Below, one piece after another: positions 1 through 31,100 of a stretch of DNA of 31,430 bases. Source of the stretch: Candidatus Thorarchaeota archaeon. GTDB lineage: Archaea > Asgardarchaeota > Thorarchaeia > Thorarchaeales > Thorarchaeaceae. Each line of letters begins with the position of its first letter. Within the stretch, counting starts at the first letter, position 1. Both the position numbers and the translations under genes were made by a program. Where the stretch lies: NCBI GenBank assembly GCA_029855925.1, contig JAGSHP010000001.1, positions 1-31,430 of the forward strand, written 5' to 3'. The notes beneath the pieces are model-generated. The model worked only from the letters and a program-made list of their open reading frames with translations, was not told the origin of the DNA and did not search any database.

Positions 1-792
1 AGTCCAGTGAGCGGTCTGGAGAACCTGAAACGGTTGATTCTGTCATCAAATCGCCTCACGCGTATCGATCTGAGTCCCCTGCGTGGTATGGTGAACCTGA
101 TATCTCTGAACCTGTCACAAAATCGCCTCACGCGTATCGATTTGAGTCCCCTGCGTGGTCTGGAGAACCTGCAGTCGTTGGAGCTGTCACAAAATCTCCT
201 TGCACGTATCGATCTGAGTCCAGTGAGTGGTCTGGTGAATCTGAAAAAGTTGAATCTATCGGTAAATCCCCTCACGCGTATCGACCTGCGTCCAGTGAGC
301 GGCCTGGAGAACCTGGAAACATTGAATCTATCGGCAACTCATCTCACGCGTATTGACCTGCGTCCAGTGAGTGGCCTGGAGAACCTGAGAACGTTGAATC
401 TATCGTGGACTCAACTCACACGTATCGACCTGCGACCCCTGAGCGGTCTGGTGAGTCTGGAGGAGCTCCACTTGAGAGACGCCAATCTCTCGAACATCGA
501 CCTGGGTCCGTTGAGCGGTCTGGTGCACCTGAAAACGTTGGACCTGGCGTCAAATCACCTCACGCACATCGATCTGCGACCCCTGAGCGGTCTGGAGAAC
601 CTGGAATTGTTGGACCTGTCACAGAATCGTCTGAGGCGTATCGACCTGTCGCCGTTGAGCACGGTCAATGGTCTAAAGAAGCTGCACCTGGTGGCAAATC
701 CACTGGTGGGCATCGACCTGAGTCCATTGCGTGGTCTTGCGAACTTGGAATATATATATTTGAATCAGACCCCTCTTACGAACGTCGACCGT
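1..792 (+). repeat. 72-nt coding tandem repeat, 11 units (LRR units)
   Basis: CGTATCGA(T/C)(C/T)TG recurs at 61, 133 and onward with a 72-nt period. The protein units are 24 aa each. Confidence 0.92.
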
Positions 793-828
793 AGTTCGCT
801 CAGAGCCTCGGTACACGTCATTAAGTGA
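1..828 (+). CDS. Leucine-rich repeat protein, 5'-truncated by the window edge (11 x 24-aa LRR, consensus SPLSGLxNLxxLxLSxNxLTRIDL)
   Basis: Frame 1 is open from base 1 (SPVSGLENLKRL...) to TGA at 826-828. The track start at 7 is an internal GTG. The LxxLxLxxNxL core is clear in most units. Confidence 0.93.
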   Translation, partial: SPVSGLENLKRLILSSNRLTRIDLSPLRGMVNLISLNLSQNRLTRIDLSPLRGLENLQSLELSQNLLARIDLSPVSGLVNLKKLNLSVNPLTRIDLRPVSGLENLETLNLSATHLTRIDLRPVSGLENLRTLNLSWTQLTRIDLRPLSGLVSLEELHLRDANLSNIDLGPLSGLVHLKTLDLASNHLTHIDLRPLSGLENLELLDLSQNRLRRIDLSPLSTVNGLKKLHLVANPLVGIDLSPLRGLANLEYIYLNQTPLTNVDRSSLRASVHVIK

Positions 829-1027: not shown

Positions 1028-1117
1028 ATGCAATTTAAAGCACACAGGGTTAATAGAGTCCTACTCTTTTTCACCCTAATGTTATGTCTTTCGACAATGA
1101 TACATGTGGCGTCTGCC
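1028..1117 (+). other. Sec-type signal peptide (30 aa)
   Basis: MQFKAHRVNR (basic n-region), VLLFFTLMLCLSTMI (h-region), then HVASA|TE with an A-S-A cleavage motif. Confidence 0.75.
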
Positions 1118-7100: not shown

Positions 7101-10100
7101 GGATGTGGATAGTAGCGACAGCATTCAACACTACCACGAATAGCACCAGTGTTGAGATGTTCAACTATGAGTTCACGGAATCTAGGATTTACTCCGAGAT
7201 TCCAGACAAGAGCTACCAGAACGTTCCCGTATACATCTACGGTGATGGTCTTGATTCGTTTTTCGTGGAGTTAGGTCTGCGCATCACCGATCAAACGAAC
7301 GTCAAGTACATCACAGACAACGACCTTATTGACATAGTCTTCTCGCGCAAAAAAGGACTGGTAGTTGTCACTACTGACACCGTGCCAGCAAAGGTCATGC
7401 TGGCGGCATCAAGCGGCAAGACGTACTTGCGTGAGTGGCTCGAAGATGGCAACCAGATAGTGAGTGCTGGTGTGTTGCCATTCAGCAATGTGATCAACAA
7501 CGGGCAAAAGCTGGACACCTTCGATTTCCTTTACGGGAACGAGATCTCTTCCAGTGGTGCTTCACGTATCACAGAGGCGCTGATCACGGGCCATTCTGCC
7601 AGTGTGACTCAGGCGCAGGCGGCGATATACCAGAACCCCGCGGGTACTAACAACACCTACACGATGGAGCTGGGCGGTGAGGTAACGGATGACTACATCG
7701 AACTCAGTGGCAACGCGATTGATAATGATGGATCTATGACCTTCGTGTTCGGCATAGCAGCGGCTGATTGCAACTCGACACCGAAGAGGTACCAGACCTT
7801 TGACATCACCTTTGACGGGCACACAATCTTTGACAGGTTCACGCTGGACCAGCTGCGTACAGCGAACCACAATCTTGGTTCGAGTGGTGTGTTTTACGGC
7901 AACAATGCACGATTGTATGTACAGCACGTTGGCAATATAGAGCAGATTGATGGTACTGTGGACTGTGACTTCCTCATGTACCTGACTGTCGATGGTAGCT
8001 GGTTCTTCAAGGGGCCTCATACAATTGGTATACATGACAGGGATGACAATAGGAATCCGTCCATGCAGACCATAAGGGTACTCGAGCTGGGCAACATTAT
8101 GGAATATGAGAGGCTCAACAGACGCGAAACATTTGAGCGTGTCTTGGCGAGGTATCAAGGCGTACCAGAGATAGGCGCCGGTGTATTCGCCGTCACGGGA
8201 ATGGATATGGTGGTTAAATCGAATGAGGAACTCAGGAGTTCCTTCACCCTTAGCAACACAATCGGCCTAGATCCTGTGGAATCGATATACGCGATTGACC
8301 TGTCAGCCGTGTCTCCGTTCAAGGTCTATGGTGTCGATCTGACGGGCAAGTTCGGCGAGGCCACCGTTCGTGTAGGTGGCGGCTATTTTACGATGATTGA
8401 CATTGTACCATACTCAATAAACAACTGGGACACGATTGCCAAGCTACAGTACGTGCTGACTGGTGTGGTTGGCGACTGGACATGGCAGCACAGTACACTT
8501 ACTACTGATGGCTTCGGGCTCTACGTGAACGGTCAGACGTTCGAGGGCATGACCCACATGGTGGACACTGTCGACACTAAGGCACGGGTACATCAGGCAC
8601 TGGTGCCAAACAGGGACCTGAAGAATGATGGCTCCTATGCGAACTCCTTTGACACGGTATCGAACGTCAGTGCCGTGAACGCTACATTGGAGTGGACTAA
8701 CGGTGCAGTACTCGTGAATGGCAGTGCGGCTGGTGCGTCTGGCCAGTTCAGCATGACTGTGACCGGTGCTGACATGACAGACGACTATCTGTTCGTATCA
8801 GCCTACATGGTCAACTGTAGCCTCTCTGTGAACAGCACAGTGGGCAACATTGGTAATGTCCGTAGCAACGGCATCAGTATGTTCAAGCTTAGCACCGGTA
8901 CGCATACAAACATCTCCTTCGTGGCAACATCAGATGGTGACGGTGCATTGTTCAAGCTATACTGGATGTCCAGTTCTAAGACGCCCTTCCTGATGAGCGA
9001 CCAGCAAGTGGTGGTGGAGGATTTCTATTCCGTTGACAATCTCGTTGCATCAGGTTTTGAGTCTGATATTGTGACAGCATCAGGCGGTCTTCTGACCTTT
9101 GCACATGACGGTCTTGGCAATGATGTGGACTCGGTGTATTTTGACACTGAACCCATCCACGACCCAAGATTGATCCTCGAAATACGGCATATGGTCAATG
9201 AGACTGTGCAAGACATGGTCATCAGTGTCGTATTGCACTCAGAACAGAGATGCTCTGGTTTCAACCAGACTATCGTGCTTAATCCGAAGACATCTATGAA
9301 TACTGAGCGACACCATGTCACACTCACCACAATCCGTTCGATAGAGCTGAGGTTGTCATCACCTGCAGTTAGCTCCAACATGGCATGGATTATTGACTGG
9401 CTGGAACTCTCGGTGGACTCTGACATAGCACTCACGATGGATGACCCGATGTATGTGTCATCTATTGGTGATGTTGTGTACGAAATCGCTGGTGATGAGC
9501 TAAATATCTACACAAACAGCACAACAACAGTAGAGGTATTTATCCCTGATGTGTTTGTCAACACCGCAAGCTACCCGTACATGCATGTTAAACATTCCAA
9601 CAATATGACCAGTGCTAACATCACCCTTTGCACGACTGATGGAAATTTCAGCTACACACTGTCAGACACTGGACTTGATATGTTCAATCTTACTACACTG
9701 GAGGTAGACATCACCAGTATTGCAGTGCGTGTGACATCCGATGGTGCGAACCGTACCTTATCGCTCGATGCGATTGTCTTCTCTGACATTGCAACAACAC
9801 TCAATCAACGGAACAAAGTGACGGTTTTCTACCAAACAGATACTGGTCTCTCAACAATCGTGTTAGACGATCATCTGATGTCATGGGACGTAGGTCTGCT
9901 GACCATTGGCAACGACACATGGGTTGGCTCACGCACCGAGACCAGCATCGTCGAATGGACATGGGATGTGATGATTGTGCGTCAGGACATTCTTGATACT
10001 GATGCTTCTGTGACCGTGATGTTCTTCAATGACGGTCTCATTGACTTTTTCATCGACACTGATTCGTATGGTGTCATTATGAACCATCAGTACACCGCAA

Positions 10101-13100
10101 CCAAGTACTCTGATAGCTTTGGTGTAGTGAACAACACTGTTGTGAGTGATATTATCCGAACACCGACCTTTGCTGCGATGTATGGCAGCGGTGTTGGTCC
10201 AGCGGTCACCGCACTTGACGGTGAGAGGGTCACGGCATCTGTGCCGATGTCACGGTTCTCCATTGACATGAATGCCAATGACTCCGCCGTGCTTATCCCC
10301 TTCGTACAAGAGCGTTTCGAAACCATCGCTGGTGTCGAGATCGATCCCAACTTTGTAGTTTCAATAACTGATGTTTCAAAAGGTGGACTGCTCAGCGGAT
10401 GGACAGGAATTATCGACTCGCAAGACGTTGCGTATTGGGATGGCAGATTCAGTGAAGTCTATGCATTGCATGAGACCTTTAGTGGCAGTAGTAAGTGGAT
10501 TATCGACAACGAAGGGCAGACTATGGACACCAAAACAGCACTCGAAAAAATGACGGCCGAATCCATTGACGGGAAAATGATACTGACCCTTAATGCCAAC
10601 GAGAGCACCACAGAGACCGTGGTCATGAAATACAACTTTCTCGACATCCCAGTGAAAAACTACCCATTCTTCAGGATTGTAGCATCCGGTGATGAGAACC
10701 TCACGTTGACTGTCAAGATTAACATCACAGGTGAATCCGTGCTCTATGATGTGTGCACAATCACGCCCACGGAGAAGAATGAGGAAACAATCAAGAACAT
10801 TTATTACATACTCGACAGCGCTGGTAGGCCGGATGCTGTCATTCAGGGTGTGGAGATATGGATTGAGGAGGTCTCGCCATCAAAGATCTGTAACAAGACC
10901 GTGATGCTTGATGAAGTGGACATATACGCGATATCCGGCTTTGAGGCGATTATCATACCGAACTACACAAACGAGAACTCTGTGGCGAAGAGCAATGGTG
11001 CAATGCTCACACTGTCTGCGGACAAGGAAAAAAGGATGAGGCTGCGCAGGATTATGGAGCCGCGGATTGACACCACCATGAACAGGATATTCCAGTGGCG
11101 AGAGTATGTTGGTTACGAGTCCACGATAAACATAGTCGTGACCAATAGCTCCAGCAGTTCATATGTTATAGACGAGGATAACACCAACTGGGCAGTGGTC
11201 ACTGACGATGTGTCTGAGATTCTCGAGATTGCCGAACTCAACATCACGCATGTGTCTGGCGCAAACACCGAGGGCGAGTCTCATATAGACTGGATTAGGG
11301 TGATGAAGCCTTACACCTCCCTCTATATGTGGGAGGGTTTCGATGACGGATCATGGACACCGACTGGCGGTTTCACACTCAGCGCATTCTCAATGCCTGC
11401 GCCTTCTCCAGATAATGAGATAAACGAACCCTGGACAGGTTCTGTGTCAGGACAGTCGGTGGAGCGGTGGTCGAGTTATGACGCCGACCCGGGCTCGTTC
11501 AGTAACGGTGGGCATCTCTCGATACATGACGCCACCCATTATGAGTGGACACAGTGGTACATTGCAGACGTGACACGGGATCACGGGTACACCAGTCAGC
11601 ATACCAACATCAACAACGAACAGGACTGTGGTATCGATGACGGATACAAGGCGGCACAGGCTGTCGGTCCAATTGCGACAAATGAGTACGTGACGGCATT
11701 CAAGGTCTATATCAAGGCGTGGGAAGACCCATTGTTCATAGGAAAGAACGTTCGATGGCGGGTATACTCTGGTACGGAGACAACACCCAACTACAACTCG
11801 ATATTGCGATCTGGCAGTTTTGACGCCTCCACATCTGCATTTGGCTGGTATACCATATCGTTCTCCGCAATATACGGCAGCAACTCATACCTCTGGATCT
11901 CCGTTATGGGCAATAAGTATCTGGATCATGGTGGTGGGCTCTCAAATGATGAGCATCCCACTGCCGATCAATATGTCTATTCCAGAGTCTATTGGAAGTA
12001 TGACTCCACCTCGGACAGCAGTCCGGGAGGGAAACGGTATCTGAGTGGCATTGGCAGTGACTGGTATGACTTTGCGGTTCAATATCGGAAATACACAAAG
12101 TACAGTGGGTCATCAGTCTATAACTATGGTATCACGATTAACTGGCACGACAGTAGCGGGAACCATCAGCAGCAGTTGTCCACGGATGGTACAAAGGTCA
12201 CACACTCTGCAAGCACGGACGATGTGTGGGTGACCGCCGTTTCGTCCATTACGAACATCAATCCCTCACGAGTGGTTTCATACTACAAACGTCCTACAGC
12301 GAGTACCAGTGCCTACTTCTCAGCAGACCCCGACACAGAGGTGACAACATGGGAGTTTCCGAAGGACTTTGTACTGACCAACTACGGCGACCATGATAAT
12401 ACGAATGACGGTAAGTTCAGGTTCAACAAAGACTCGTCATGGTCGTACTCAAGCATAAGTCCCACGGGGCCCTCAGTGACTATTGTCGGGAATCAGGTGA
12501 CTGTCACAAATGTGGTGTACGGGACCGCGTACACACTGACATTCACACAGTCAAACACTGCACTGACGATCACACCAAAGAGGACCGATTCAGGGGGTAA
12601 TGTGTTGGAGGACGGCCCTGATGATGTACCATACCTGGGATATTCACGAAGCACCACCTCTGCAGGTGCGGGCAACAATGGCATCTTCTATGTATACGGA
12701 TATGTCTGGGACATGATAGACGGACACAGTGCCACTCTTGAGTTCAGTGAGACCTCCTCAAGTGGGCTGAGTACATACACAAGTAGCAACAGGCAGATGA
12801 CCTATCCGGTTGACTCCGGCCTCTACTATCGGGTGTGTTGGGCATCCGACAGTGGATTGAAGCGGTTTTGTGAGGCTGAGGGTCACTACATCCGCGAGCC
12901 TGCACTTGATACGGACCTCTCCCACAATCCGAGCTATGACTCCTCTCAGCAGTCCAATAGTGAGCATGTGGAAGTGAGACTGGACTACATGTATGGTTCC
13001 AGTGACATCACCATGCATTATCGAGTTGGTGGTGGAAGCTGGCAGACCACTGTGGAGTCCGGTGTGACCCACGGTCCCACCGGTGAGCAGAACTATGCTC

Positions 13101-16100
13101 ACTTCACCTTTGATGACTTTCTGGGGGTTTCTGACGAGGAGAAGACAATCGAGTTCTACTTCACGACGAATGCCTGGGGCGGGCCCCACACCTTTGACAA
13201 CGGTGGGAACTACTGGTCATTCTATCTTGAGGACAGCGACACGGATGGTCCATCCATAACGAGTGTGTGGCCATCCGATCATGGTACTGTCATGGACAAC
13301 AGTGCAAATGTAAGATATGGCGGCGTGTATGGTGACGGAGAGATCAAGGTCTATGCCACCATAACGGACCCATCAGGTATCGAACATGCCGAGGTCCACT
13401 GGACCTATCAGGCAGGCGGCAGTGGGACTGTGAGTCCAATGGAGCACTCCGGAGACCTGTATTGGGCATGGGTCCCGATTTACTATGTTGATAACCCTGA
13501 ATTCAGTGACTACCTCAAATTCAACATCACTGCGTATGACAATGATGCGAGTATCTCATCGAGTTCTGAAACCAGGAGTCATATTAGGGTGCAGGATGAT
13601 GACTATCTCGCCCCGACTGCAAGTGGCCTCGACAGTGGCACATTCATCGTTTCCCAGAGTATCTCTGACAGCGGTATATGTACCGACTACAACACCGGTA
13701 ACTCTGGTATTTCCACGTCGTTCTCAAATGTGACATGGTACTGGACGGATGCACCAGAGACCGTCTACGAGGCAGACACGTTCAGCATCACGCCGAATAT
13801 GAACAACGGTTATGACTGGTCATATACCATATCTTCCTCGCATTGGACCGAGGCGGACGAAGGTAGACAGATTACTATCACTCTGAATGTTGTTGATGAT
13901 GACGATGACAGGGGTGCAATCGACCGTATGGCCGGCTCGTATAGCTGTCAGTGGACAATGAACGACGACGACACCACGGCACCAGTCATCGAGGCCACTG
14001 CCACATCACCCACAATGGACGACTCTGTGGTGCAGGACTTTGTGCTGTATGCGAAGATCTCTGATGCAGGTCCAGACGGTGTGAATGTGGTCAAGTTCAA
14101 GTATGACATAGGCGGGACCACATATGGGTCATTCCGGACCGCCTCCGACAACAACGGCACATGGTGGTGGTACAACATTCCATACTCTGAGTGGAGTGCC
14201 GAGGTCCAGAATGACCCGAGCGGTAAGACGGTGTACTTCTGTGTATACGCACAGGACGGTGACAACAGTCCGCTCTCGGTACAACAGAATGACATAGTCG
14301 GGAATCAGGTCAAGGACAATGACGCACAAGGGCCGAGCATCAGTCTCGTGAGTCCAATTGAGGGGTCCTTCAAGTATGATGCCGAGTGGCAGACATCAGG
14401 AATTGAGGTCTGTGTGACTATCTCCGACTCATCACCCCTGGACAGCAACAGCATTGAGTTTCAGTACAGAGAGCAGGGCTACAGCTGGGGCGCCTCTTGG
14501 TATGGATACACAAGTTCCGGTTCCGGAAAGTACTACTTCACAATACCCGACTCATGGCTGGACGCACATATCAACAGCATTGTTGAGTGGCGTGTGCATG
14601 CAAGTGACGCAGACAACAGTCCCACATCAAGCACGAGTGCGACGTTCAGTTTCCATGCAGACGATGATGATACCGTCATAGCGTTCTCGGAGTTGGGTCT
14701 GAATAACCCAAGCACAATGTACTCGGACAAGTCGTACACAATACGGATCAAGATCACTGAGGGCTCAGGAATAGACGCACAATGGGTGGAGTGGTGGTTC
14801 ACCGGTGAGGCCCACCACGAGGAGAACATGACCCTCGAGTCACAGAACGGAAACGAATACATCTACAAGTTCACCATAGCTGCCCCGGGTGACTCTCGTG
14901 AGAATACGTTCTTTGAGTGGACGGTGCATGCACGAGACACCGACAACGACAGGGGCGACATTGACAAGACCTACCAGACCAGTCATCGCGACAACATCCC
15001 GATAGCAGATGATGATGCCGACACACCGGACATATACAACACCGTCACGAGTGGTGACATTCTAGACAACAACACAGGGAGTTACATATTGCGGGTATAC
15101 GTGAATGACGAGTCGCCGGTCAACGTGACAGTGTGGTACAGGTACGGCAGCGGTTCATGGTATGGTCCATTCAACATAACTGACTCGAAGGTCGCCGTGA
15201 ACAGCACCGCGTCTTACTTCACATATTACATAGCAAGGACTGGCGGCTGGCTCGACCATATCGGTGAGATGATCTACTGGAATGTCACGGTCTGGGACAA
15301 GGACAACAGTCCTCTCAAGACCGAGATAAACAGCATGCAGGCAGGTACACCGACAGATGACGACACGAGTGCACCGTCACTCACTGGCGAAGACCCGTCG
15401 AACGGTGCCTCGATAACCGATGGCTATATTGTCACACAGACGCAGGAGAAAATGAGGGTGGAGTTCAGGCTGACGGACAGACTCTCTGATGTGTCGTGGG
15501 TCAAGTATAAATGGTCCTTCAATGACGGCCCGTGGAGTGACTGGCTTGATGCCACGCGGTGGTATAACCCTGATAAGACCGACTGGTGGTACTTTGACAT
15601 TGACTCCGATCTTCTCCTTGACAACACAGGCAAGACGTTCAGGTACTACCTCTGGGCCTCCAACGGCGACAACGACAGGCCGAACGATGCCGAAGAGTAT
15701 CTCGAATCATATCCGAACAACTATCACTGGTTCATGATACGGGACGATGACATATCTGAACCGGACCTGACGCACGTACAGCCGAGTGCCCCGGTGTCGA
15801 ACACGGACTTCACACTCTCATTCACCATAACAGACACTGATGGCGAGAACGGTGAGAGTGGTGTGTCAGAGGTGGTCCTCTACTACAGGTATAATAACAA
15901 TGCATCTTCATGGATGACGACAACGGCATACTCGAAGAACGGTGACGTATACAGGTTCACATTGAACTTAGGGGATGACTGGGAGGCGTACGGTATTGAG
16001 TACCTCGTATATGTCAAGAACGGCGATACTGATCGTGGTCTTGCAAATGATGCAGAGTACGGGTACAAGACCGCCACGGGATCATACCTCTCCCTCTCGA

Positions 16101-19100
16101 ACGCTGAGGGTAGCGGGTGGAAGCTAGCAGTGCTGGATGATGACACTGCGGCACCAGTGATAAGTGACATTGATACATCCGGTGTCAATGACGGGGGTCA
16201 GTGGTGCTTCAATGTCACGCTCAGCGACATGTCCGGTATACACACCGCATATGTCTCAGTTGATGGCAACATCAATCAGACTCTGATTCTCTGGGACAGC
16301 AGTGTTGATGCCGATTACTTCAGTGTAGACAACTATTACTTCTATGTGATACTCGACCCACTGCCACTCAATGGCTACCATACAATTGAGGTCTTTGCAC
16401 TCGATGATGATGGTGTCGTGTCATCGGACAAGCTGTGGAACAGTCAGTCTGTGACATTCCTGTCGACAGATGATGACATCAAGGCACCTGATGTGAAGGT
16501 ATGGATCCCTGATGCCGAATACGATGCGATAGCGACCATCTATGCCAATGTGACCGACTACAGTGGCATATCCGAGATCACGGTGTACTTCTGGCAGGGT
16601 CGTGGTGTCACCTCTGCGTCAATGGTGCTTGATGCCACATACAACGGCACATCTTGGAGATACAGGTACGATGTCTCACCAGAGCAGACATACTGGGGCT
16701 CCATGCTCTTTGCATATGTCTACGCTGTGGACGATGACTACGACTTTAGCAACTCGTCCGACCACAGCAGTGTGATCACGGCCACGGTGTATGGTACGAT
16801 AATAGACTCCACCCCACCGATAATAGATTATGTCACAGGACCTGTGGGCACGGTGGAGTACAGTGAGGACAATCGCGTATGGGTTGTAGCGTATGAGCCC
16901 GAGGATGCATCACTCGTTTCTCATGCGTACATGAACTACAGCCTCAACGGTGAGTGGTTCCTCGTGGAGATGGGTTATGTGAACAGTTCACTGTCCAACG
17001 GGCAACACTATAAGACGTTCATGGCCAGACTGCCGCTGAGATACGGAGCGACCCTACAGTATCATGTGATATGTTATGACAATGCTGGTAACAGTGTGAC
17101 GAGCGCCACATATACCGTGGAGAGTGTTGTGGACACCACACAGCCGGAGCTGCTATACTCGCAGGTGATGTATGCGGAGCCCGGTGTGAACGGTACACTC
17201 ATTGCAAAGTTCTACGAGCCCGATATTGCATCCGGTCTTGTATACGTACAGGTGAACATCAGGCTCAGACAGAGCGGTACATGGGGCGACCTCTATCAGA
17301 CCAATATGACCTACAACAGTAAGGCTGACACATGGGTGTTCACACTCCCAGCAGTCAGTGAGAATGACGAGTTCCAGTACTGGTTCAGTGCAGAGGATGC
17401 AGCGGGTAACATGTTCACAGGAGAAAACATAACATATGTGGTGAAGGACTTCTTAGAACCGACCATCATTGAGACCGGAGTCCTCAACTCTATAGAGGAG
17501 CCCAATAAGGTGGCATATCTCAGGACGATGTTTGCTGTCGAAACAGAGGGAGTCTACAGCCTCGTGGCACTGCGGAACGGCGCTGTCGCCAACATGACCC
17601 TGTGGCTGGACGGTGACGAGATTCCGAGTGGTGCACAGGTCATGCTCTCTAGTAGTGTACACATCGTCATGGTCAGGGTCGAATCGGCTGACATGTATGC
17701 GATGTGGGGTGTGCAGGTCATGAACATGAAGTCAGAAGTCTCTATCAATGAGACCGCCCTCGCATTCAACCTCCTGATGCCTGCACCACCTGCGGACGAG
17801 CTACGCATCGAGCGTGTGGGTGTCCTGGGTCCAATGACCGGCAATGACTATTATGCCACATACTCGTACGACGACATCGCCATAATAGAGGGCGACTTTG
17901 AGAACAGTGTCGACAGCTGGGAGTACGTCAACGCGAGGAGACTCAGTGCTCTTGGAATCGATGGATCATATGCACTTAGTCTCTGTAGTGACACAGGCGT
18001 AGAGGGTAGTGCGTCGTATGACTATGCAGGCAACATCACTGCTGACGCTCTGGCTTTCTATTACAAGTTCAACAGCAATACCGACTATACAGGTCTCGAT
18101 GTTTCGATCGGATACATGGATGGTGACTGGCTCAACCAGACGCTGGTAATCAATGAGACCGTCACATGGAAGCAGGTTGTAATCCCGATCAGACACAAAG
18201 AGATATCGGTCGTGGTGCTATCACAGAACACTGACAACACTGACCCATACGCCCTACTTATTGATGATGTTTCGCTCGTGACAACGGAGCTTGTGAAGAC
18301 AAGCTGGAGCACAAAGATGTATGACGACCTGTCACCTCACAAACTACTCGAAGTTGACGCAGGGACCGTTACAATGGAGTATGCTGGATATACTGAGTTT
18401 GTTTCACAGGTCGATACGAAAGCAGTCCTCGATGTCACACTTGTCAATGGTGTGCAAATGGATATATACTCCGGAGTGGTCAAGATAGCCTCAATTACGT
18501 CAAGTGCGAATGTGCCATTAATGGTCACGCGTGGATTGAATGTTTTGACAGTGTACATCAATGCGACAAACGCCAAACTGGGCTTTGTAGGTATGTATCT
18601 CAGGTTCACAAATGGCACGCAGGTGCCTGTGACTGTCCTCGGATTGAATACTGGTCTAGCATCACTGACTGATAGTGAGAGCGCGATTATTATACCACTG
18701 CTCCCAGAGTTGTGGCAGGTGGACGAGCAGAGCACCACAAATGTCACAACGACTGCCAACGATGACACATGGGAGATCGAGGCTGAGATTGAAGTCGCCT
18801 CAAATGATGACCTGACTGATGACATTGTGGTGTTCAATATCACAGAGGGCTTTGACATTCGTGTGATGCCAGTGCTTGTTTCAGAGATCTGTACAAATGA
18901 CACATCACTGATGATCAGGTATATGGCTGAACTCCATTCTGCCTCGACAGGTGAGTCAGTCTGGGTAGCCATAGACTGGATTAATGCGAGTGTGGGCAAC
19001 TATATGACTGATCTGACATGGGCAGCTGCGCAACAGTTCGGCACCTCTGCGGGAGACTACGATGAGTTGCTAAGCCTTGAGTTATGGATTGGGGACCTTA

Positions 19101-22100
19101 CGGGTGACGGCGCGTTCATTACGGACACGGCGAGCGTGTCTGTCCTGACCTACTTCAAGTCTCGTGTTGGTCATGTCTACGAAACGGTCCCGAGAAACAA
19201 CGGATACAGCAGTCTTCTCTCTGACTTCGACATTGCCATGGATGACTTCAACATATCTAGCAACGCGTTTCATGGATATGGCTCTGCGCTGGTTGGTGGG
19301 AGCAATGGCGCGTTGACAATAGATGTGTCAGAGGAGCCACTCCCAGAAATAATCAGGTTCTTCTGCAACGGTACAGTGTCTGTAGACATTAGCATATCAC
19401 TGGACGGCAGTAATTACACGGTCAATGTGATGGACACGCCAGCTCAGGACAGCTGGTCCACGGCATTCACTGCCAGACGTGAAACTGTCGTGGGATGGTA
19501 TGAGTACATCATCGACATACTTAGCACCGTGAAATCACTAGCTGTCGACAATGATGTCATGTTTAATGAGATCTATATATTTGAACTGACATTCGATTCT
19601 GCTGAAGCCAGTACTGTGGTTATAGATTCATTGAAGTTAGAGAACCATAGGGAAGTCATAGTCGAGATACCATACTGGGATGTTTCGATGGTCTGGGAAA
19701 CGAGATGCCTCGGCTTCCATCTTGTTGGTACCGAGGGACTGAGTTCTGTGAACCAGCCGTATTACAGTGTGGACTATGATGGTATAACTCTTGAAACAAC
19801 AGATAGATCATGGTATGAGGTGACGAACCTGTTCGTTTCTAACTACGATACAACCGCCGTAGTGGTACAACAGGCATACGGGATGGGACTAATTATAACT
19901 GACACCTATTTCATAAACAACACTGGATATGTATCATTGGACAGAAATGTAAGAAAACTTGGCAGCCCAGATCTCTATTCCAATGAAGTCATGATGACCT
20001 TCAACTATGATTTGGGCAAGGTCATGCAGGACTACTACATTGACTCTGCAAGCGTGCCTCTCTATGACTTTGGTGGTGTACTTCTGAGTCATGCATCCGA
20101 CGGGATTGACAATACTCTGGATGTCGATGTTGTTGAGGAGGACGTTGACTCGCCATACTTCAGTCGCTCCATGAGCACCATTGTTGACATAAGCAGCTAT
20201 GAGGCCTGCAACATCGTTTCTGATGGTGACCTGATGAGGATGGCACCAGAGTACAACAAGGACTCTTTCTGGGCAGAGTACTCTGGATTGAACATTGACA
20301 ACAGTATTGCAAAGTGGCTCATGCTCTCGGTGGAGAATGTATACGACTACATTGGATATGTCGAGTTGTATGGTCCATCTGGTTTTCTCGTGCGCCATGA
20401 GTTCAACAAGTCAGGAAGACATACATTCGCGCTCTCACTGTCTGAGAATATCGTAGCGGTCAGAATAGGCGCAGAATCAGTGACACTATCAAACATACTC
20501 ATGGTGGACTGGCTGACCATCAGAGAGAGACCGTTTGTGGTAGATCTCCCACCGACCTCAGATCTCACACTGAGAAGGCACTATCCCGATTTTGTAGAGG
20601 ACTTTTCTGACATCTCGGGCTGGGACTTTGAGGAGTATAATGTCAGTAGTACGGAGTACTTCCAGTGCGGTGTCAATTCTGGTATGCTCATCTTTGAAGG
20701 CTACTTCCGTGAGAGTCATACGGACACAATTGAACTGACAGGACTCAACATTGACACATTCAAGTACCCGAACTTCAAGATGAACTACCAAATCGAGCAG
20801 AGAGGCCTCATAAACGGGCAAGTCACATTCAAGATTCATTATGTGAAGAACGGTGTGGAGGGTGTAAATACATACTACATCTTGACAGAAGAGAGCACAT
20901 CAGGTGATGGGGTTGTCACAGAGAACCTAAATGTCACGACGGACGGCGGTTGGGTTACCAGCATAGAGATTGCGGCGGAGGGGTACAACGGTGCTGACGG
21001 GGCCTATAAAGTCTGGATTGACGATATTGTCATTGTCGAGGATACACTCGAGTACTACTACGTGTTTCGTTCACCGTTCTTCAGCGACAGCTTCACCTCT
21101 GTCAGTGATTGGAATAATGCTGACGGCACAGGATCTGTCACTTCATATCTGAACAATGACGGTATCAAGTTCACATCAACCTCAACGACTGCGAACTTCA
21201 GCAAGGACTGTCATCTTGAAATAAGATTTGACTCTGTGTTGGAGTTTGAGATAATGAACGGCGCTGGCACAATGCCTGACAGGATATGGGTGGCCTTTGA
21301 TCTCCACAATACAACGAGAGTGGATGTGATGGAGGTGACATCTCCGAGTGCAACATATTACAGGATGGACCTTGAGAATTTCACATCACTTGAAGTCGAC
21401 AAAGTTGTATTCGGTCTTGAAGGTAGTGGTGATGTATTGGCATTAGACTACATCAGAATCTCGGAGGCGTACAGCGCTCATGTATCATGCCGTCACATAG
21501 GTGGTTGGACAAGTACTGCAAACAGGCTCATGTCAGATGGGGAATCCGTCACAATCGAGGCATCAGTTGGTTCATGGAGCGCCAACTTCATGTTCCCGGA
21601 GGCACTGCCGTCATCAGTATATTCCACCCTGCGAATCGAGTACACGCTCGATCATTCCTCAGACGGGCCAGAGATACGACTGCGTGGACTGAACGGTGGC
21701 GATACGTACGACCACCTGTCAATGGACGAGATATATGAGGATGACTGGATTTCACCATTCATAGCAGACGGCGAGAAGCATACACTCTACCTCGATGTTG
21801 CAGAGAGGTTTCCGGGCAATGCGCTCTACCGCATCGAGATACGAGACACATCATCAGAGATGTACAACCTCACTATACACAGCATAAATCTCTTGGAGAA
21901 ACAGGATGACATCGCACGAGTCGGGTCATCAGGATGGACGTCTGCGGCATTCATGACTGAAGATGCACTCCGGTTGCAGACAATTGCCGATATTCAGGGC
22001 TCCTATGGTCTTCAGTTCAATATATCCGTTCATGGCAGTTTTGCAGAAGCGATACGTGTTGAATACTCATCAGTCATCAATGCAGACATAGATGCTTACC

Positions 22101-25100
22101 TCTATGTCACCACTAACAACACAAAGTACGAATACAACATTCCGTTGTCGGCATGCCGCACAACGCAAATCATCAGTATAGCAAATGTCACGGATGAGAT
22201 ACTAGATGTGGGAATCACGATGAACTACACTTGCAGTAACGATGAGTATCTCTGGCTTGATATCTATGACCTCAAAATACTCTCAACCCCGCTCATCTCA
22301 TATGATAGGTTTGAATCATTCTCGGCAGGGACAGCAACATTCACAGACATTATAGAAACACTCTATCACATCCAGACGCTAATCAATGAGGACGTGGTTG
22401 ATCAGACGACTGGCACCGATGTAGGTACACACTCGGACTTCACAAATCTGCAGAATGCCATAACACTACTTGACACAATGACAGAGGGACTGACAGGTAC
22501 ATGGGGTTTTGACGGTGAGTTCAATGTGTCAAGCTACCTTGAAGTCCTTGGTGCAGTCGTCGAGATGTCAACCTACTGGCATCTCGATGAGGCGGACTCT
22601 GGCGATGCAGGACCATATATTGATGTTGCCGACTCCTACAACATTGTGTTTGGCGATCTGTTGACATCCGGAGTGCTACTTATCCAGACACTCGGTGATG
22701 GAGAGACATTGAACATCACGGAGCATGATGATGGTACACCACTATCAGAGCTCTACACGGCTGTGGTTGACTATCACAGTTGGACTGGACTCATCAGTGG
22801 GACAATAACAGATGTTCAGACTGATGATGCCAACTACATGACACTCACAGAGGAAGATGCTGGCGTGGCTGCTGTGAACGGTGAGCACGGCTATGACACC
22901 AGTAATGACAATCACTTGCCGGCCGATGTTGGTGTGGAAACATTACCCAATAATGCAAATGATGGTAACATTGTCACGGTGATGACGATCGCAGAGTACA
23001 ATTCCGGAGAAGCAGGAAACCTACAGTTTGAAACAATAAAGATCACGAATGTAGGCACCGACTGGGTAGATGTGAACTTTGCAAACACATATGTCAGCCC
23101 AGTGGTGATTGCCACATTGGAGATTGGTGCTGGGCATGATCCAGCTGTCACAGCCGTCGACCATAGAGTTAATGCGGTGACGAGCACTGGATGCAAGGTC
23201 AAGATGGCAATTCCTGACCATCAGTATGGTGATGGCAGTTATGTGAATGGTACAATATACCTCTTTGTTGTGGAAGAGGGCAGCTGGGACGTTGCTGGAC
23301 TACCAAAGATTGAGGCAGGAATACACACGACCAGTACTGTTGTGGCAAACACCTATGATAGTGCTGGAGAACAAGTCATACTCAACTCGACGCTCTGGAG
23401 TGGTGTGTCACAGGCCGAGTTCTTTGTGACTGTCGGTACTGAGAATCAAGCGGCAACAGGAAGCAAATGGATTAGTGCATGGGTCAATGGTGGGAGCAGG
23501 ACCACTACCCCAACCACGAGTTCGTTCTATATTTCAATGAGTTCTGCAGAGTGTACTCCACAAGACAACCACCCGCAGGAAGATTTGCACTATGTAGTGA
23601 TTGAGAACGGCATATTCAATTATGGTGGAATGCACATGCAAGTCGGTCGAACAAGTGACACAATTGACGAGTACACTTCCAACAACCTATACACTCACGA
23701 GTTTGGGCATACGCCTGTCTGGGGTGTCAACCAATACCTCAGAATGGATGGTAACAACGGTGGATGGACGAATTGGGCTGACGGGCCGTTTACAAGCACA
23801 ACAATAGAGCCATACGTTCAGGAAGACAGGTGGCAAGACTCAGAAGTGGCACACACGACCACACAGGTCAGCTACATACTCTGTACAATGGATAACTACT
23901 CTACATCCCTCAATGGTGATAATTACGACCTCGACTTAGAGTATCAATTCAATGGAGTGGACACAAGTACCACATATGCAAACCTATCGATATACATCGG
24001 GTACCACAATGGCACTGAGGATCTGAATGTGGACTACTGGAACGGCACCAGTTGGAGTAGTCTGGGGATGGTACCTGCCGATATTGACTATCAGTGGTAT
24101 AATATAACGATTAAGGACCCTGATATACCCATTGATGTCCTCAGTTCCGACTTCGAGATACGGTTCGATGCCATCACTAATACCAGTGATGTAACACACG
24201 ACTCTTGGGAGATTGGCGAACTTGTGATTCACACATGGACCCCTGCCGTCATAGACTATGAGATGAACACAAAGTTCGATTGGGACACCACTGCGGACGA
24301 TACGAGGACCTATGGAGTGGTGATAATCACAGTTGCATCGTCGAGCACAGAGGCTGCCTTTATTGAAGCATGGGATGGTGCCACATGGAATAGAATTGGT
24401 ACAATAGACAGTGGAATATCCTCTGACATTACCTATCAGTTTGATGTGAAGAACGATACTGTTGACTACATCCTCGGTACAAACTGTACAATTCGGATCA
24501 TTGGTGTCGATGAATCTCTAGACGCTACACAGGACAGTTGGGACATTGACCTGATTGAACTACATACATGGACCCCAGCAGTGGTGAACTACAGGTTCGA
24601 TGTTGACTTCACATGGAATAGTCCCGTCACTGATGCTGAGATGTCATCCGTCTGCATGTACTTTGAGGGTAACTATGGAAATGAGCAATTATCAGTGTAC
24701 TATGACAATGGTGGCGGTTGGACAAACACTGGTGAAGTGATACCAGCAGGACTGACTGGCTGGAAGAACATCACAGTGACGGGTCTGGTGACAACATCTA
24801 CCTTTAGAATCAAACTCGTGGGCCAGTCAGAGTCATCAGATATATCACGGGACCGGTGGGACATTGATTATGTTATGCTGAGAACTTCCAGTTCAATCAC
24901 GAGCCTTACGGCGTATGACACACTAACAACGGTATATGGTCACTGGTTGAATCAGGCTAATGCACAGGACATCGGTGGCGGATATATGACAGTGACCGAA
25001 ACGGAGAACGGCACACAGTTCACAGATTTGAGTGACAGTGTAGATGCATATCTTGCATTCACAGGAGTTGTGTCACTGTTTGCGAATGCACAGTCACTTG

Positions 25101-28100
25101 ATTCCAACTATATGACACTGACAGAGGAGGACACAGGTACTCCAGCAACAAATATGGAAGATGCTGTTGATAGTAACTCATCAGATGTGGACTCATCGCC
25201 TGACAAAGGTATTGAATCAAGTTTTGCCAACGCACAGTCCTATGATGGCGCCAGCATGAATATCACTGAAGAGAATACGGGTTGGAGCCCAGAAGAGGGC
25301 TTCAAGACCTACCATGGTTCATTCGAATTCACAAACACGCTCGGTGTCACCACCGATGTAAGTATCGGTGCTGTTGTCAACCCCAATCACGCGTTCATCC
25401 GGGTATACACTGCAGGTTCGTCAACACCGAACACACCCACAGAGGGTGCTGTGTCGGGTTACATCCTTAACTCCACACATATCAGGTTTGAGCGGAACAC
25501 TGCCGTTTCAGGTTTGTGGGTATCATGGTTTGTGATTGAGTGCTTCAACAATGAGTTCACAGTACGTGCACGTGGGGATATCGAACTACTCTCCGGAGCA
25601 ATGACAGGATCCGCGAGTGTTTCGGGGGTACAAGATATCAATAGGGTGATGGTGACGGAGTCTCATAGAGGCAGTGGCAGCAGCACCAGCGACTGGAGTG
25701 ACACATTTGCGAAAGCATACATGACTGATGTGTCCACCGTAATGGTCAAGCGTGCGAGCAATGGTACAACTGTCAACATCAGGTATGAAGTGGTTGAGTG
25801 GCGTACCGACTTCAATGTGTATCGCGGGACCTTTGTAAAAAGTGCTACCACTCAGACGGTGGACATTGGCGGGACAGTGGACCAATCACGTTCATGGGCT
25901 TATGCAACATGGACAGCTCCGACTGATGGGATTCAACAGGTGCAGCTGGCTTATGGAATTATTTCTTCCACCCAGTTAGAGTTTCTTCATTACTCGGATA
26001 ATTATGCATGTGATGTGCAGTGGTATGTTATCGAACATCCGACAAATCTTGCACCGACAATCACGAGATATAGCTATAACTGGGACCCGACCACAAGTCC
26101 GGACAATGTCAGGACGAACGCCATAGGCACTGCGATTGCAACGGATCAAACATTCATACACATGAGTTGTACTACCTCTGGTACTGGTACCGCCTTCAGG
26201 AGAGACTTTAACCTTCCGAGGTTGGTCAATGCCACCTCATGGAGTGAAACGCAGTACAACCCGACTACTGCCAGCTATGATCAGCATGAGACGCGTGCTG
26301 CGGTGATTGAGCTGCCATACTCACCAGGAAGCAGTGACAATTATGAGATCAATGCGGAGTACCAATGGAACACTGCCCACTACACAGAGGTGAATGAAGA
26401 GGTCTGCATATATGTTTCATCTCACAGTGGTACAGAGGTTCTGAATGTTGAGTACTGGGATGGCGCTGGCTGGAGCACCATCGGCACGATAAGCAGCACG
26501 GGTTGGAGCAACATCACGGCGGTGGGTCTCACCAGCAGCACTTACACTATACGAGTGGTTGGCGGTATCGAGGCCAATGACACATCTGCGGACATCTGGT
26601 ACATCGACTACATCGGTCTTCACACATGGAGTGATGCAGTCGTAAACTACGAGATGAATGTCAGATTTGACTTCACAGATGTGGTGACCACACACGACCA
26701 CACTAACCTGACGATTTACACAGATGCTGTGCAGACAGAACCCCTGAACATCAGCATCTACAATGGTGTGGGATGGACAAATCTTGGTCAGATCAGTAGT
26801 GCTGGTTGGAATAACTTCACGATTGATAGCCATGTTGCCTCAACAATCAACATAACCCTGTTTGGTTCCGACGAAAACAATGATGCCACACAGACATCAT
26901 GGGACATCGACTACGTCGGTCTGTACAGCTGGACTGATGCTGTCAGTAACCATAGAACTGAGGCAGAGTTCACATGGAGCAACATTGATACTGGTGCGTC
27001 TGAGGCGTATGTCACGATATACGCAGAACAGTTATCCACAGAGATGCTTGAGGCCTGGGTGTACGATGGTGCATGGCACTATCTCGGAAACATCACTAAT
27101 GCGCATGGTTGGAACAACTTCACAGTCACAAATTACTTTACGAATCCGAGCTTCAAGGTCAAGATAGTGGGCGCCACTGAATCAGCAGACCCCTCTCAAG
27201 ACACATGGCAGATTGACTATGTCGGTCTTGAAACTCGGGTTGTGCAAAGAAAGAACTATCTGGTCAACATTGAGTGGAACTTTGATGGTATCACAAATTA
27301 TAATGAGGACAACGAACAGGTCTGCATCAATGTGCTCACCATGGGTAGTGAGACACTGAATGTTGAGTACTGGGACGGCGCTGGTTGGAGTCTACTCGGC
27401 ACAATTACTGGCATAGGTTGGAATAATTTTACGGCTCTTGATCTCACAGGTTCGAGTTATAAGATTCGACTAACAGGCACAGATGAAACAAAGGACATCT
27501 CACAGGACTACTGGAACATTGACGATATACTCTTGCACTGTTGGAGTGTCCGAAACAACTACGAGCTGAGTCTTGAAACACAGTGGAACAGTGTCGACAC
27601 CAGCGCTGATGATATTGAGTTGTGCATCTATGCGGACACGCTGGATACAGAGGATATCAAGGTGGATATATGGTACAACAGCAGTTGGATGACCGTGCTC
27701 ACCGATCTTGTACCGAACTCATGGAACAATATCACCATCAAAGGATACATTCAATCGTCAACGACAAAAGTGAGGTTTGTTGACGGTACAGCGGCACAGG
27801 ACGAGGCACAGGGATCATGGAATATCGGTTCCGTCCTGCTCAGGTACACGACAAACAGTATCGCAGCACCAATTCAGTATAGTGCAATTGAAACGCCTCT
27901 CATTGGTGGAATGTGGTACACACCCGACTATAACATTACTGTGGTGTCATGCAATGGTGAGGTATATGGCAAGCTGAACGCAACAGCATCTCCCATCACT
28001 GCAAAATGGATGGTGAACGGACCAGTGTACCACGGTGACGCGATCATGATGCGTTGGCGATACACGATTGACACAGACCCTGTGAGTTCCACATATCAAT

Positions 28101-31100
28101 TGATTATTGAGCATGACAACATGAACACGACCCTTGCCATTTTGCCGAACGGGTTCACCAAAGGCACAAGCAACTGGACCCTCACACGCGTGGCACTCAA
28201 TAATATTGGCATAACACATGTCAACAATATCTATATCCGTGCTGAGTCCGGGGTGATGCACATTGACTACATCTGTATTGGTCACGGTGGTGTCATCTCC
28301 ACGGGATTACTTCAACCGAGTGACGTGGTCGGTGACCTGAGTACTACGTCATACGGCTTTGATGTGAGCGGTATGGATCTTGTAGAGTTCACATATGACA
28401 ACATCAATCTCATGGTGTCTAACGACATCTATCTATCGATGAATGTCTACTTGGACTCGAACGATGAACACTATATCGTCATAGACGGCATATATCGGAA
28501 TCAGACAGCTGGCACTGTGACATACATGATTCCAAACATCGTTACGGGATGGAACAAGCTCAGCATGAACATAACGGACATTGTAACCACCTATGGACAG
28601 ATGGATCTCGTCGACAGGGTGACAATCCGAGCAATAAGGCCCTCTTTCATCGTGAGCATGCATGTCGATTGGATAAAGGTCCTCACCCACAGCAGTAAGA
28701 CGGTGATGTCTGATTACATAGAGATAATGGGACTGAAAAACACAGACGGCATAATCATCTACGACATTGCTGATTACACACAGGGTTTCACGCCGACTGG
28801 TGGTAACACGCTCACGGCCGTTGGTGTGAATGGTGAAACTGAAATGAGCGTAAGCATGTTTGTCGGTGACATAGACTACTCTGACCCAATGCCAGCACAC
28901 CAGCTTGCTAACTACCTATATGATGGCGTGCCGCTCGCTGTTACATACTGGCCAAAGTCATCATTGAAGATTACAACTAATGGACATGACATGGATCTCA
29001 GAGTCGAAACACCCAATATGAAATTCACATTGGGTGATGATGTTAATGCGGTGCTCGATTCTGTCGATGTGATCAGGAGCTACGAACAGGTCGAGATACG
29101 GATGACAGGCTGGGTCGACGGGAAACAGATGAATAGGACATATGTGATACGCGACTCGGGTGAAATCAATTGGACAACCTACCTCGATGACACCATGACA
29201 CTGGACAACTTCCGCATCGACAGTAGCTATTTCCGTATACAACCAGATCTACATTACATAAACACCTTCGAAACTGTTAATGTCACTGCTATCTCTGGTG
29301 TAACAACATCACTGACTAGTGCATTAACCGAGGGAAGCAATGCAATTTCCATTCAGTCATCAGCAGCCTCTGGTGGTGTCAGAATTGCGGATGGATTATC
29401 CCTCTCAGGTGATGACTATTGGAAAATTCGGTTCGTTGTAAGACCCACATCTAGTGACATAGACATGAAAGTACAGCTCACTCTTGACGGGTCAGAGTTT
29501 GCATATCTATTGTCAAGAGACAACGATACGCACTTCGAGTATGGAGAAGACCTTGTATATAATGAGCGGCAGGTCATCATGATGGATAGGTATTCCTTTG
29601 ACACCGATCTAACAGATAGGACCATCAAGGCCGTTAGTGTCTACATCGGCAATGGTCATAGTATAATCATTGACGACATGTATATGTCGGACATGCCAGT
29701 TAGTAATGGACCGCAGTTGCTCTGGACCGTGAAGAAGGCAAGCAACAGCAGCTATTACTCCTACCTCGATCCGTCAGTGAGGTACACTGACAGTGACGGC
29801 ATTGTCATGTATTCTCTTGACAGCAGAATCGGTATGTCTGTAAATGCAAACTGTTCAATGCAGAACGGCGACTTCGTAACTCTGCTGAATGGATCACTGT
29901 ATGTTGGTCCATATGCAGATGATGAGTCACACATCTATGCTAGAGAGGTCACACCGTCATCGGTCCTTGACATAGATGAGGAGGGCAGTCTGGTGTACTC
30001 TGTCGACATGCGGAACGGCGAGGACAGAGAACTCACTGTCATATTCAAGAACAATGACAATAGCGTCTTCAAAACGGTGATCGTGCACAGCACAACGGGT
30101 GTAAACGACATTGACAACGGAATTATGTATCTCAACAAGACCCCTGGGAGCATTCATCAGGTACGTCTCTCGATACCCACAGTCCTGTTTATGCTCAACG
30201 AGAGTGGTGATTTGCCTGACCTCTACAGCTTCACAACAAACGTGACGGGACGTGTGGTACAGGTGATGACAAAGCCGGTGTCCCCACTGCTTGAATACTT
30301 CACGGTGTCTACAAAGCTCATAGAGGAGGTGGCAGGCGGTGTTGATGAACAGGGATACATAACTAACTGGATTGCGAGCCCGCGTGATGCGATGGACAGA
30401 TCCCTGTATACATCTAGGAACGCAGAGGAGTTTACATTCATTCACAACCTCCATATATCACAAGAAGACATGGTCAATATGACATCGTCCCACTACCTGT
30501 ATCTCAACTTCTTCACCGATACAGACTTCCCGGACTATGAGAACCACACATCAACCAGCGGTGAAACACCGGTATATAGGATGGCTGACTCTCTGTCGCA
30601 CTCCGGTCTAGAGTACTACTTCGAGCTCACGGTGGAACGCAAGTACACAACAGAGTGGGAATACCTTGACGGTAAGTGGGGCAACACCATCACAGACGAC
30701 TACTACTTCAGCATAGTACAGAAGGAAGTACATGAAGGGTGGGTACAGTCCAGCAAGGTGATAGCCAGTTGGACTATGAGCACATCAGAGGTGCAGCAGA
30801 AGTGGATGTTCTGGGAGTATGACCTCACTCATGGTAGGCTCCAATACAGCTTTGTTGACGATGATGGCACGCCGACCTCCAAGCCGGTCACAAAGACATT
30901 CATACAATATCATGAGCTGAATACATTGACTAGCATAAGCATACTCAAGCTCACCAACAATGCCAGCTTCTACTTAGACGATGTCTCTGTTATGACACAG
31001 AATGGCACAAAAATGATGTTTCATGACGACTTCAGCTATGGTTCCGTAGCCGAAATGGCAACACACGGTGGCTGGGTGTGTAGCGGAGAGTATAATGCAG

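Follow-up and report, generated by a model that had tools for sequence, protein, structure and literature searches.

In giant bacterial RTX adhesins such as MpIBP, split stalk domains project ligand-binding modules, with one insert per host domain. Recursive nesting has been described for the sandwich-barrel hybrid motif (SBHM) domains of Si3, an insertion in the β′ subunit of cyanobacterial RNA polymerase, where it reaches six levels (PMC13114784). Here we describe a nest of split domains in a giant protein of a Candidatus Thorarchaeota archaeon, encoded on a contig of 31,430 nucleotides that was analysed whole and is called the window below (GenBank assembly GCA_029855925.1, contig JAGSHP010000001.1). 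At window positions 22613-27253 the protein carries two arms, each made of three levels of paired sequence pieces, termed X and A, around a tip. The arms match in their motifs level by level, their units group by level in trees, their tips are unrelated, and relatives carry variable modules. We consider it likely that the two arms are tandem copies of one ancestral three-level arm and that their tips were exchanged.

The source metagenome-assembled genome (MAG) measures 2.2 Mb and is 75% complete. A single open reading frame (ORF; 1028..31429, forward strand, as are all features of the nest) fills nearly the entire 31.4-kb contig and hosts the nested module; it encodes more than 10,134 amino acids and its 3′ end is open at the contig end. 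The N-terminus of the giant protein resembles a signal peptide and is not of the pilin type, and the nest begins ~7,100 residues into the chain. An earlier sequence-only reading had proposed that the arms are paralogous, and all of the motifs that it quoted are present in this frame; the interval that it named (aa 7196-8742) coincides exactly with both arms. When the eight A domains (~100 aa) were made into a profile, it matched exactly eight copies, three at aa 7632-7956 and five at aa 8438-8944. The X units (~40-45 aa) likewise number eight, five ahead of tip 1 and three ahead of tip 2, and their family consensus consists of an acidic D.VD...SDVDSS.DKG stretch followed by F.N.Q..D...TLTE. 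Along the chain the order is X1 X2 X3 X4 X5 - tip 1 - A1 A2 A3 - X6 X7 X8 - tip 2 - A4 A5 A6 A7 A8, so that the window order XXXXX T AAA XXX T AAAAA is a balanced, properly nested bracket word.

Read as brackets, the outermost split domain comprises X1 (22415..22504; family-consensus type, DVGTHSDF) and A8 (27557-27859), and the second outer level comprises X2 (22517..22609; level-3-type signature) and A7 (27254-27556); both enclose the two arms. Within arm 1, X3 (22622..22741) is partnered with A3 (24587-24895) at level 3, X4 (22751..22870), whose match to X7 is the strongest observed, with A2 (24254-24586) at level 2, and X5 (22895..23014) with A1 (23921-24253) at the innermost level 1. These surround tip 1 (23015..23920), an all-beta head of ~300 aa with a confident predicted fold. 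Arm 2 pairs X6 (24899..25018) with A6 (26948-27250), X7 (25025..25144) with A5 (26645-26947) and X8 (25148..25288) with A4 (26339-26644) at levels 3, 2 and 1, respectively, around tip 2 (25289..26338), a head of ~350 aa composed of repeated beta-sandwich modules. The spacing from X to X is 43 then 48 aa in arm 1 and 42 then 48 aa in arm 2; as read from the sequences, it is 42-44 then 48-50 aa in four of five arms when relatives are included.

The nested-bracket model, in which an X and an A piece make up one split jelly roll resembling a carbohydrate-binding module (CBM) with the next module looped out, holds in comparative architecture and, by structure prediction, for X8/A4. In the proposed mechanism each level would be a single CBM-like beta jelly roll in two pieces, with the ~45-aa X supplying the N-terminal strands and the ~100-aa A supplying the rest, and the last X strand and the first A strand would form a hairpin from which the next level or the tip is looped out. 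Because inserts would occupy looped-out hairpins, the chain would ascend through X3-X4-X5, form the tip and return through A1-A2-A3, and would do likewise through X6-X8 and A4-A6; X1/A8 and X2/A7 would enclose both arms, giving a branched single chain.

This model was checked in four ways, by comparative architecture, uninterrupted units, partner coupling and structure prediction. A search with arm 1 against 1.84 billion representative proteins returned 688 relatives. According to the family profiles, 58 of the 87 proteins carrying X or A have a balanced, properly nested order, and the orders found among homologues include XX-T-AA, XXX-T-AAA, arrangements up to XXXXXX-T-AAAAAA, and the branched X(X-T-A)(X-T-A)A. 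The remaining, unbalanced homologues are mostly N-terminally cut fragments that start inside an A run, and X is in excess in one protein only. XA units lacking an insert occur in the relatives P0172 and P0037, where just 1-4 residues join the X strand to the first A strand, indicating that the insert lies in the turn of this hairpin.

Coupling between bracket partners was also evident. The mutual information between each X and its bracket-partner A was 1275.7 (126 pairs from 44 proteins), compared with 1187.5 ± 11.7 (maximum 1221) after re-pairing within proteins, and none of 200 such shuffles attained the observed value. The most strongly coupled columns link the X unit with positions 6 and 8 of the first A strand. 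Some of this mutual information could stem from depth-dependent types rather than from physical contact. Outer partners also match in type despite the DNA that separates them: level-3 type is shared by X2 and A7 across 4.7 kb, and level-2 type by the X and A of the fourth level in the relative P0006 across ~2.4 kb. This long-distance agreement provides further support for the bracket pairing.

For structure prediction, the window segment X8-tip 2-A4 was modelled with AlphaFold2 (AF2) from a 90-row paired alignment of X-tip-A segments taken from innermost levels. The predicted local distance difference test (pLDDT) score was 94-98 for X8 and 96-98 for A4. Exhaustive structural alignment of the model gave single CBMs as the best matches (CBM86 6sgf, CBM29 1wcu, CBM8, CBM11 and CBM32), with Z scores of 9-10.6 over 116-137 residues and a root-mean-square deviation of ~3 Å, across model range 1..495. 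Since the alignment starts in X8 and exceeds the 102 residues of A4, the prediction is that X8 joins A4 in a single CBM-like jelly roll from which tip 2 is looped out. The outer X/A pairs may likewise form single domains. When X8 and A4 were submitted as separate chains the two-chain prediction scored 0.00; this gave no verdict and was counted neither way.

We then compared the two arms level by level. The sequence-only reading had matched X4 with X7, X3 with X6 and X5 with X8, and the first of these matches is strong: the two units share 10 of 12 residues in the stretch that was quoted, have a Smith-Waterman score of 86 over 40 aa (z ~14-16), and are reciprocal best matches. Taken singly, the other two matches are weak and not reciprocal best, with scores of 37 for X3/X6 and 31 for X5/X8 (z 2.4-2.9), and the D.G.E motif shared by X5 and X8 belongs to the family-wide X consensus, being present in X1 too. 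As a set, the X matches fared better. Among the 60 matchings that represent all ways to pair A1-A3 with three of A4-A8, the predicted level matching ranked first for the X units, and it also ranked first for the first 10 residues of A. The identity of the predicted pairs over whole A domains is 37, 37 and 39%, compared with 53% for A4/A7 (the closest of all A pairs), 44% for A2/A4 and 40% for A1/A8; these whole-domain values mislead on pairing because the slowly evolving, consensus-like A4 and A7 dominate them. One further likeness put forward for A1 and A4, their ends HTWTPAVI and HTWSDAVV, turned out not to be level-specific: A2 ends HTWTPAVV and A5 ends YSWTDAVS, which makes this the motif of the junction from one A to the next.

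Trees and topology tests were used to examine the same pairings. In a tree of the eight A domains, A2 joined A5 (support 52/67), A3 joined A6 (67/85), A4 joined A7 (80/88) and A1 joined A8 (68/83). Two of the three A-domain sister pairs expected by the sequence-only reading were thus recovered, weakly, and A1/A4 was not; with X and A data combined, the A1/A4 pairing was neither recovered nor rejected. Imposing all level pairings jointly cost 0.8-6.7 log-likelihood units (lnL) over the tested data sets, with p-values of the approximately unbiased test (p-AU) of 0.19-0.35. The partition comprising X and the first A strand accepted the level constraint (ΔlnL 0.8, p-AU 0.35) and rejected a register shift (25 lnL, p 0.004), a mirrored register (13.5 lnL, p 0.016) and the arms as separate clades (48.7 lnL, p 0.0006). 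For X and A together, the level constraint cost 2.7-6.7 lnL (p ~0.2) and arm clades were rejected (p 0.005 and 0.015). Overall, shifted or mirrored registers cost 10-28 lnL and were rejected in some data sets only, and separate arm clades cost 18-49 lnL and were rejected in all three data sets that contain X units. Tests on the A cores discriminated nothing (arm clades p 0.08).

A broader tree was built from 21 bracket units (X+A) drawn from six arms in four genomes. These units grouped by level, not by arm or genome, so the outcome that was to count against paralogous arms, trees that do not group equivalent levels, did not occur. Level 2 together with the fourth level of P0006 formed a clade (97/92), levels 2 and 3 were split from level 1 (93/96), level 3 formed one side of a branch (56/81), and a level-1 clade was not rejected (p 0.47). 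The level labels required the minimum possible number of changes on this tree, which none of 200 shuffles reached. Under the proposed history, levels 1, 2 and 3 would have diverged first and the arm would have been copied afterwards, which would explain why the arms match level by level; the scaffold would have been kept and the tips drawn from unrelated cassettes. The copying step itself would be a tandem segmental duplication in this lineage.

It is in this last step that an alternative deserves most attention. The arms may be homologous by level without arm 2 having been copied from arm 1 in this gene, the pair being instead an older tandem pair that has suffered losses or the product of recombination from another surface-protein gene. 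P0178, a protein of 3,637 aa from another Candidatus Thorarchaeota MAG, carries two tandem three-level arms with the same level signatures, arm number and depth vary at the same site among relatives, and in the 21-unit tree X3A3 groups with a P0178 unit, not with X6A6. The age of the copy points in the same direction: since 5 of 11 degenerate codons differ in the X4/X7 core, the copying was not a recent event. (A recent gene conversion linking X4 with X7 was likewise considered and rejected, given five synonymous differences in 12 shared residues.) Against this alternative, X4A2 and X7A5 remain sisters to the exclusion of level-2 units from three other genomes, with weak support in both the 15-unit tree (65/75) and the 21-unit tree (74/47), and X3A3 and X6A6 are sisters in the 15-unit tree. 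We regard an origin of arm 2 outside this gene, or from an older pair, as rather unlikely, and favour copying of one three-level arm, perhaps within this lineage.

Several observations weigh against the copying of a whole arm, or against the nesting on which it depends. X6, X7 and X8 are more alike mutually (scores of 65 and 73) than they are to X3 and X5. The A cores (without the first strand; ~90 of 140 columns) rank the predicted matching only 24th of 60, and their free tree joins A4 with A7 and A5 with A6. On A domains alone, A1+A4 was borderline rejected (p-AU 0.049). Support for individual sister pairs is weak (47-88), and A1, A3 and A8 sit on long branches. In addition, an AF2 model of the whole of arm 1, made from a heterogeneous alignment of 73 rows, left X3-X5 unstructured (pLDDT 30-40), and the confident model covers the innermost X/A pair of arm 2 only. 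The arm 1 result was not counted against nesting because the paired alignment of X8-tip 2-A4 gave values of 94-98. As for the A domains, the likeness put forward for A1/A4, A2/A5 and A3/A6 stands for the first strand and fails for the cores, for which saturation or homogenisation among tandem A domains would fit, as with A4 and A7 at 53% identity. The level likeness of the arms is thus real but local, being carried by the X units and the first A strand.

The mutual closeness of X6-X8, the A5/A6 pair in the core-only tree and the disordered X region in the arm 1 model are what would be expected if each arm had grown alone by local duplication of X and A, or if X were repeated linkers and A beads on a string with no nesting at all. 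This explanation is largely refuted, and we give it scarcely any credence. Arm clades were rejected wherever X units were included, leaving only the A cores tolerant of them; X8 is confidently folded and with A4 aligns to whole CBMs; and X and A counts balance in most homologues, in the manner described above.

A different objection arises from the same locality of the signal. If nest depth dictated the sequence of the hairpin formed by X and the first A strand, the arms could resemble each other by convergence, with no need for a shared three-level ancestor, and such a signal would be confined to the insert-holding hairpin and missing from the A cores, as it is here. The level signatures of relatives bear directly on this point. 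In five arms the first A strand ends EYQ(W/F) at level 1, (K/R)F.W at level 2 and (D/E)F.W at level 3, and the sixth arm (the first of P0178) deviates at level 2 only, its strand ending EIEW; for X, the signatures are SDVD..PD.G.E at level 1 and Y..(W/F)TG at level 2. These types are not tied to depth. A fourth level is of level-2 type in P0006 and of level-3 type in the window (X2/A7), and the fifth level (X1/A8) follows the family consensus. Levels 2 and 3 both enclose an XA domain, yet their signatures differ. Moreover, three unrelated tips (tip 1, tip 2 and the third tip, found in P0006) are all flanked by one and the same level-1 signature, and so are both tips of P0178, whose relationship is distant. 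Because type does not follow depth, ancestry is favoured over convergence, which we consider very improbable, and the copied-arm explanation is retained.

The tips bear out the proposal that they were swapped. Tip 1 and tip 2 show no sequence similarity to one another (BLASTP E 0.54), and relatives of both turn up in other hosts. For tip 1, 88 relatives were found, many of them in proteins that lack both X and A, and homologues of it also occur in the related loci P0003 and G162. Its protein-language-model features adjoin H_lectin clusters (0.96), making an H-type lectin (PF09458) a lead only; searches with tip 1 gave no Pfam match and no PDB sequence match, and its fold searches were dominated by A domains. 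Tip 2 recurs at 40-48% identity in proteins of ~800 aa that have an archaeal-pilin-like start and two levels only. In a confident model, its first ~260 residues (three repeats) match the fold of the three-lobed PCSK9 C-terminal domain (probability 1.0, template modelling score 0.45 by target); the fourth repeat (model residues 316-386) has a pLDDT below 50. The scaffold beside the tips follows a separate path. A4, which lies beside tip 2, shares 61% identity with the innermost A of P0006, a protein with an unrelated tip, and only 38% with the A flanking tip 2 in P0153. The scaffold tracks the host clade and the tip tracks its own family, the pattern expected of a tip swap. Family-wide, 89 tips form 23 sequence clusters, and in ten two-armed XXAXAA homologues the two tips are nearly always unrelated. 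The two tips of the window may bind different ligands.

Variation of the modules is equally apparent among relatives, which carry 0, 1 or 2 arms, each of 1 to 6 levels, bearing out the expectation that arm number, depth and tips would differ. The conserved region directly downstream of the nest (27860..29227) served to locate the equivalent site. In P0003 the downstream region follows a lone arm of three levels, which bears tip 1 and is 51% identical to arm 1. In P0178 the site holds the two tandem three-level arms described above. The frameshifted contig of P0006 reads XXXX - third, unrelated tip - AAAA. Two genomes of the same family were also informative: G108 has one arm, in which the final two A domains are of level-2 and level-3 type, and G156 has at least two one-level arms. 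In G162 and G157, two more genomes of that family, open frames of 9,749 and 9,987 aa lack X and A units over the ~3,300 residues that precede the conserved region, and G162 carries a tip-1 homologue (49% identical) un-nested, in line just upstream of that region. Four genomes from the same genus gave no match to the downstream region; a scan for it gave no match in species-representative genomes and one locus in metagenomes. The A domain is present in 25 of 151 sampled genomes of the phylum, including 13 of 26 within the same family.

Other features of these loci were recorded alongside. G162 also retains the flank that precedes the nest, as judged from the alignment of G162 alone (loci G162:C25:4000-16000 and G157:C28:5500-17500). 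At the P0003 locus, two transposase genes (DDE_Tnp_1, IS110-type; L010:313-3430) lie a few kb upstream. The P0003 frame starts inside the outermost X and stops ~475 aa past the last A, and for this reason P0003 may be a cut-down remnant of a giant gene. The P0006 contig (L012:3519-19659) shows a run of same-strand gene calls, with the four X units in frame 0 and the tip and four A domains in frame 1; the run could be a single giant gene that indels in the assembly have split. P0178 (L013:6001-16914) is a complete gene that lacks a signal peptide and opens with a tip-like domain followed by AAA. No X units matching this first AAA were found in the gene or in the 6 kb upstream, so that its bracket word is unbalanced; the start is either a 5′-truncated remnant or has its X pieces supplied from elsewhere. 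In another genome of the phylum, an A domain (G102:C14:27578-27877) lies within an open frame of 14,729 aa.

Within the source genome itself, a second protein (contig C449, 2,718 bases, open throughout) contains one X/A pair around an insert of ~150 aa, making a single level, and then repeated beta domains of ~95 aa; the fragment is open at both contig ends. In the window, the first ~150 residues of the giant protein (1028-2407) have a weak, sub-threshold match to a prenyltransferase alpha-alpha toroid. Upstream of the giant frame, window positions 1-828 hold a gene for a leucine-rich-repeat protein (LRR_8, E 1e-40).

Taken together, the data raise the possibility, which we hold tentatively and place a little short of even, of a combinatorial surface display in archaea (here of a probable Asgard lineage): nested sockets would set the length of a stalk, copied stalks would branch the chain, and heads would be exchanged among at least 23 cassette families. 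Were this so, close relatives would differ in what their giant adhesins and pilus tips bind, and the nest would offer a natural case in which an entire multi-level nested scaffold is one heritable, copyable unit with a swapped payload. The nest would explain how one chain presents two different heads, and in the giant proteins of Asgard-type archaea it flags a hypervariable site, which may reflect recognition of partners or surfaces. The balanced grammar of X and A could guide the annotation of hundreds of unannotated archaeal surface and pilin-like proteins, and for protein design the socket is a domain that accepts inserts of ~130 to 1,500 residues, copies of itself included.

Finally, we asked how this family relates to those already described. 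Pfam and NCBIfam contain no family for X, A, the uninterrupted XA unit or either tip, the sole match being sub-threshold, to DUF7265 (PF23927): A4 scored 21.6 bits against a gathering threshold of 24.6, and a match was seen for only 1 of 91 A domains. Among CBM families, CBM_6 and CBM30 gave one weak match each in the same set of A domains; the likeness to CBM families is at the level of fold and does not amount to membership. Profile searches of PDB sequences gave no match, and a literature search found no paper on this family or on DUF7265.

Among comparable systems, predicted X8+A4 resembles CBM jelly rolls in aligning to whole CBMs, a likeness of the scaffold by fold alone and not by sugar binding. 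Archaeal type IV pilin-like proteins provide a second link, since small members of the family (P0159 and P0023, ~590 aa) start with Pilin_N (PF07790) and continue as XX-tip-AA; unlike these, the window protein exceeds 10,134 aa and has a signal-peptide-like N-terminus. As in the RTX adhesins, a probable binding module breaks into a beta-sandwich stalk domain of a giant surface protein and is held outward; here, however, domains of one host family form stacks of 3 to 5 levels (as many as 6 in relatives), and such stacks are copied whole. A parallel to the nesting itself is the Si3 SBHM array, in which domains of the same family are also inserted into one another over several levels, each host being in two pieces that reunite around the insert. 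In contrast to that array, the nest described here is built from a CBM-like jelly roll in an extracellular surface or pilin-like setting, it branches into two arms with exchangeable tips, and its depth and arm number vary among close relatives. What seems to be new is that CBM-like sockets form a branching nest, that this nest is copied as an entire stack and that its heads are exchanged.

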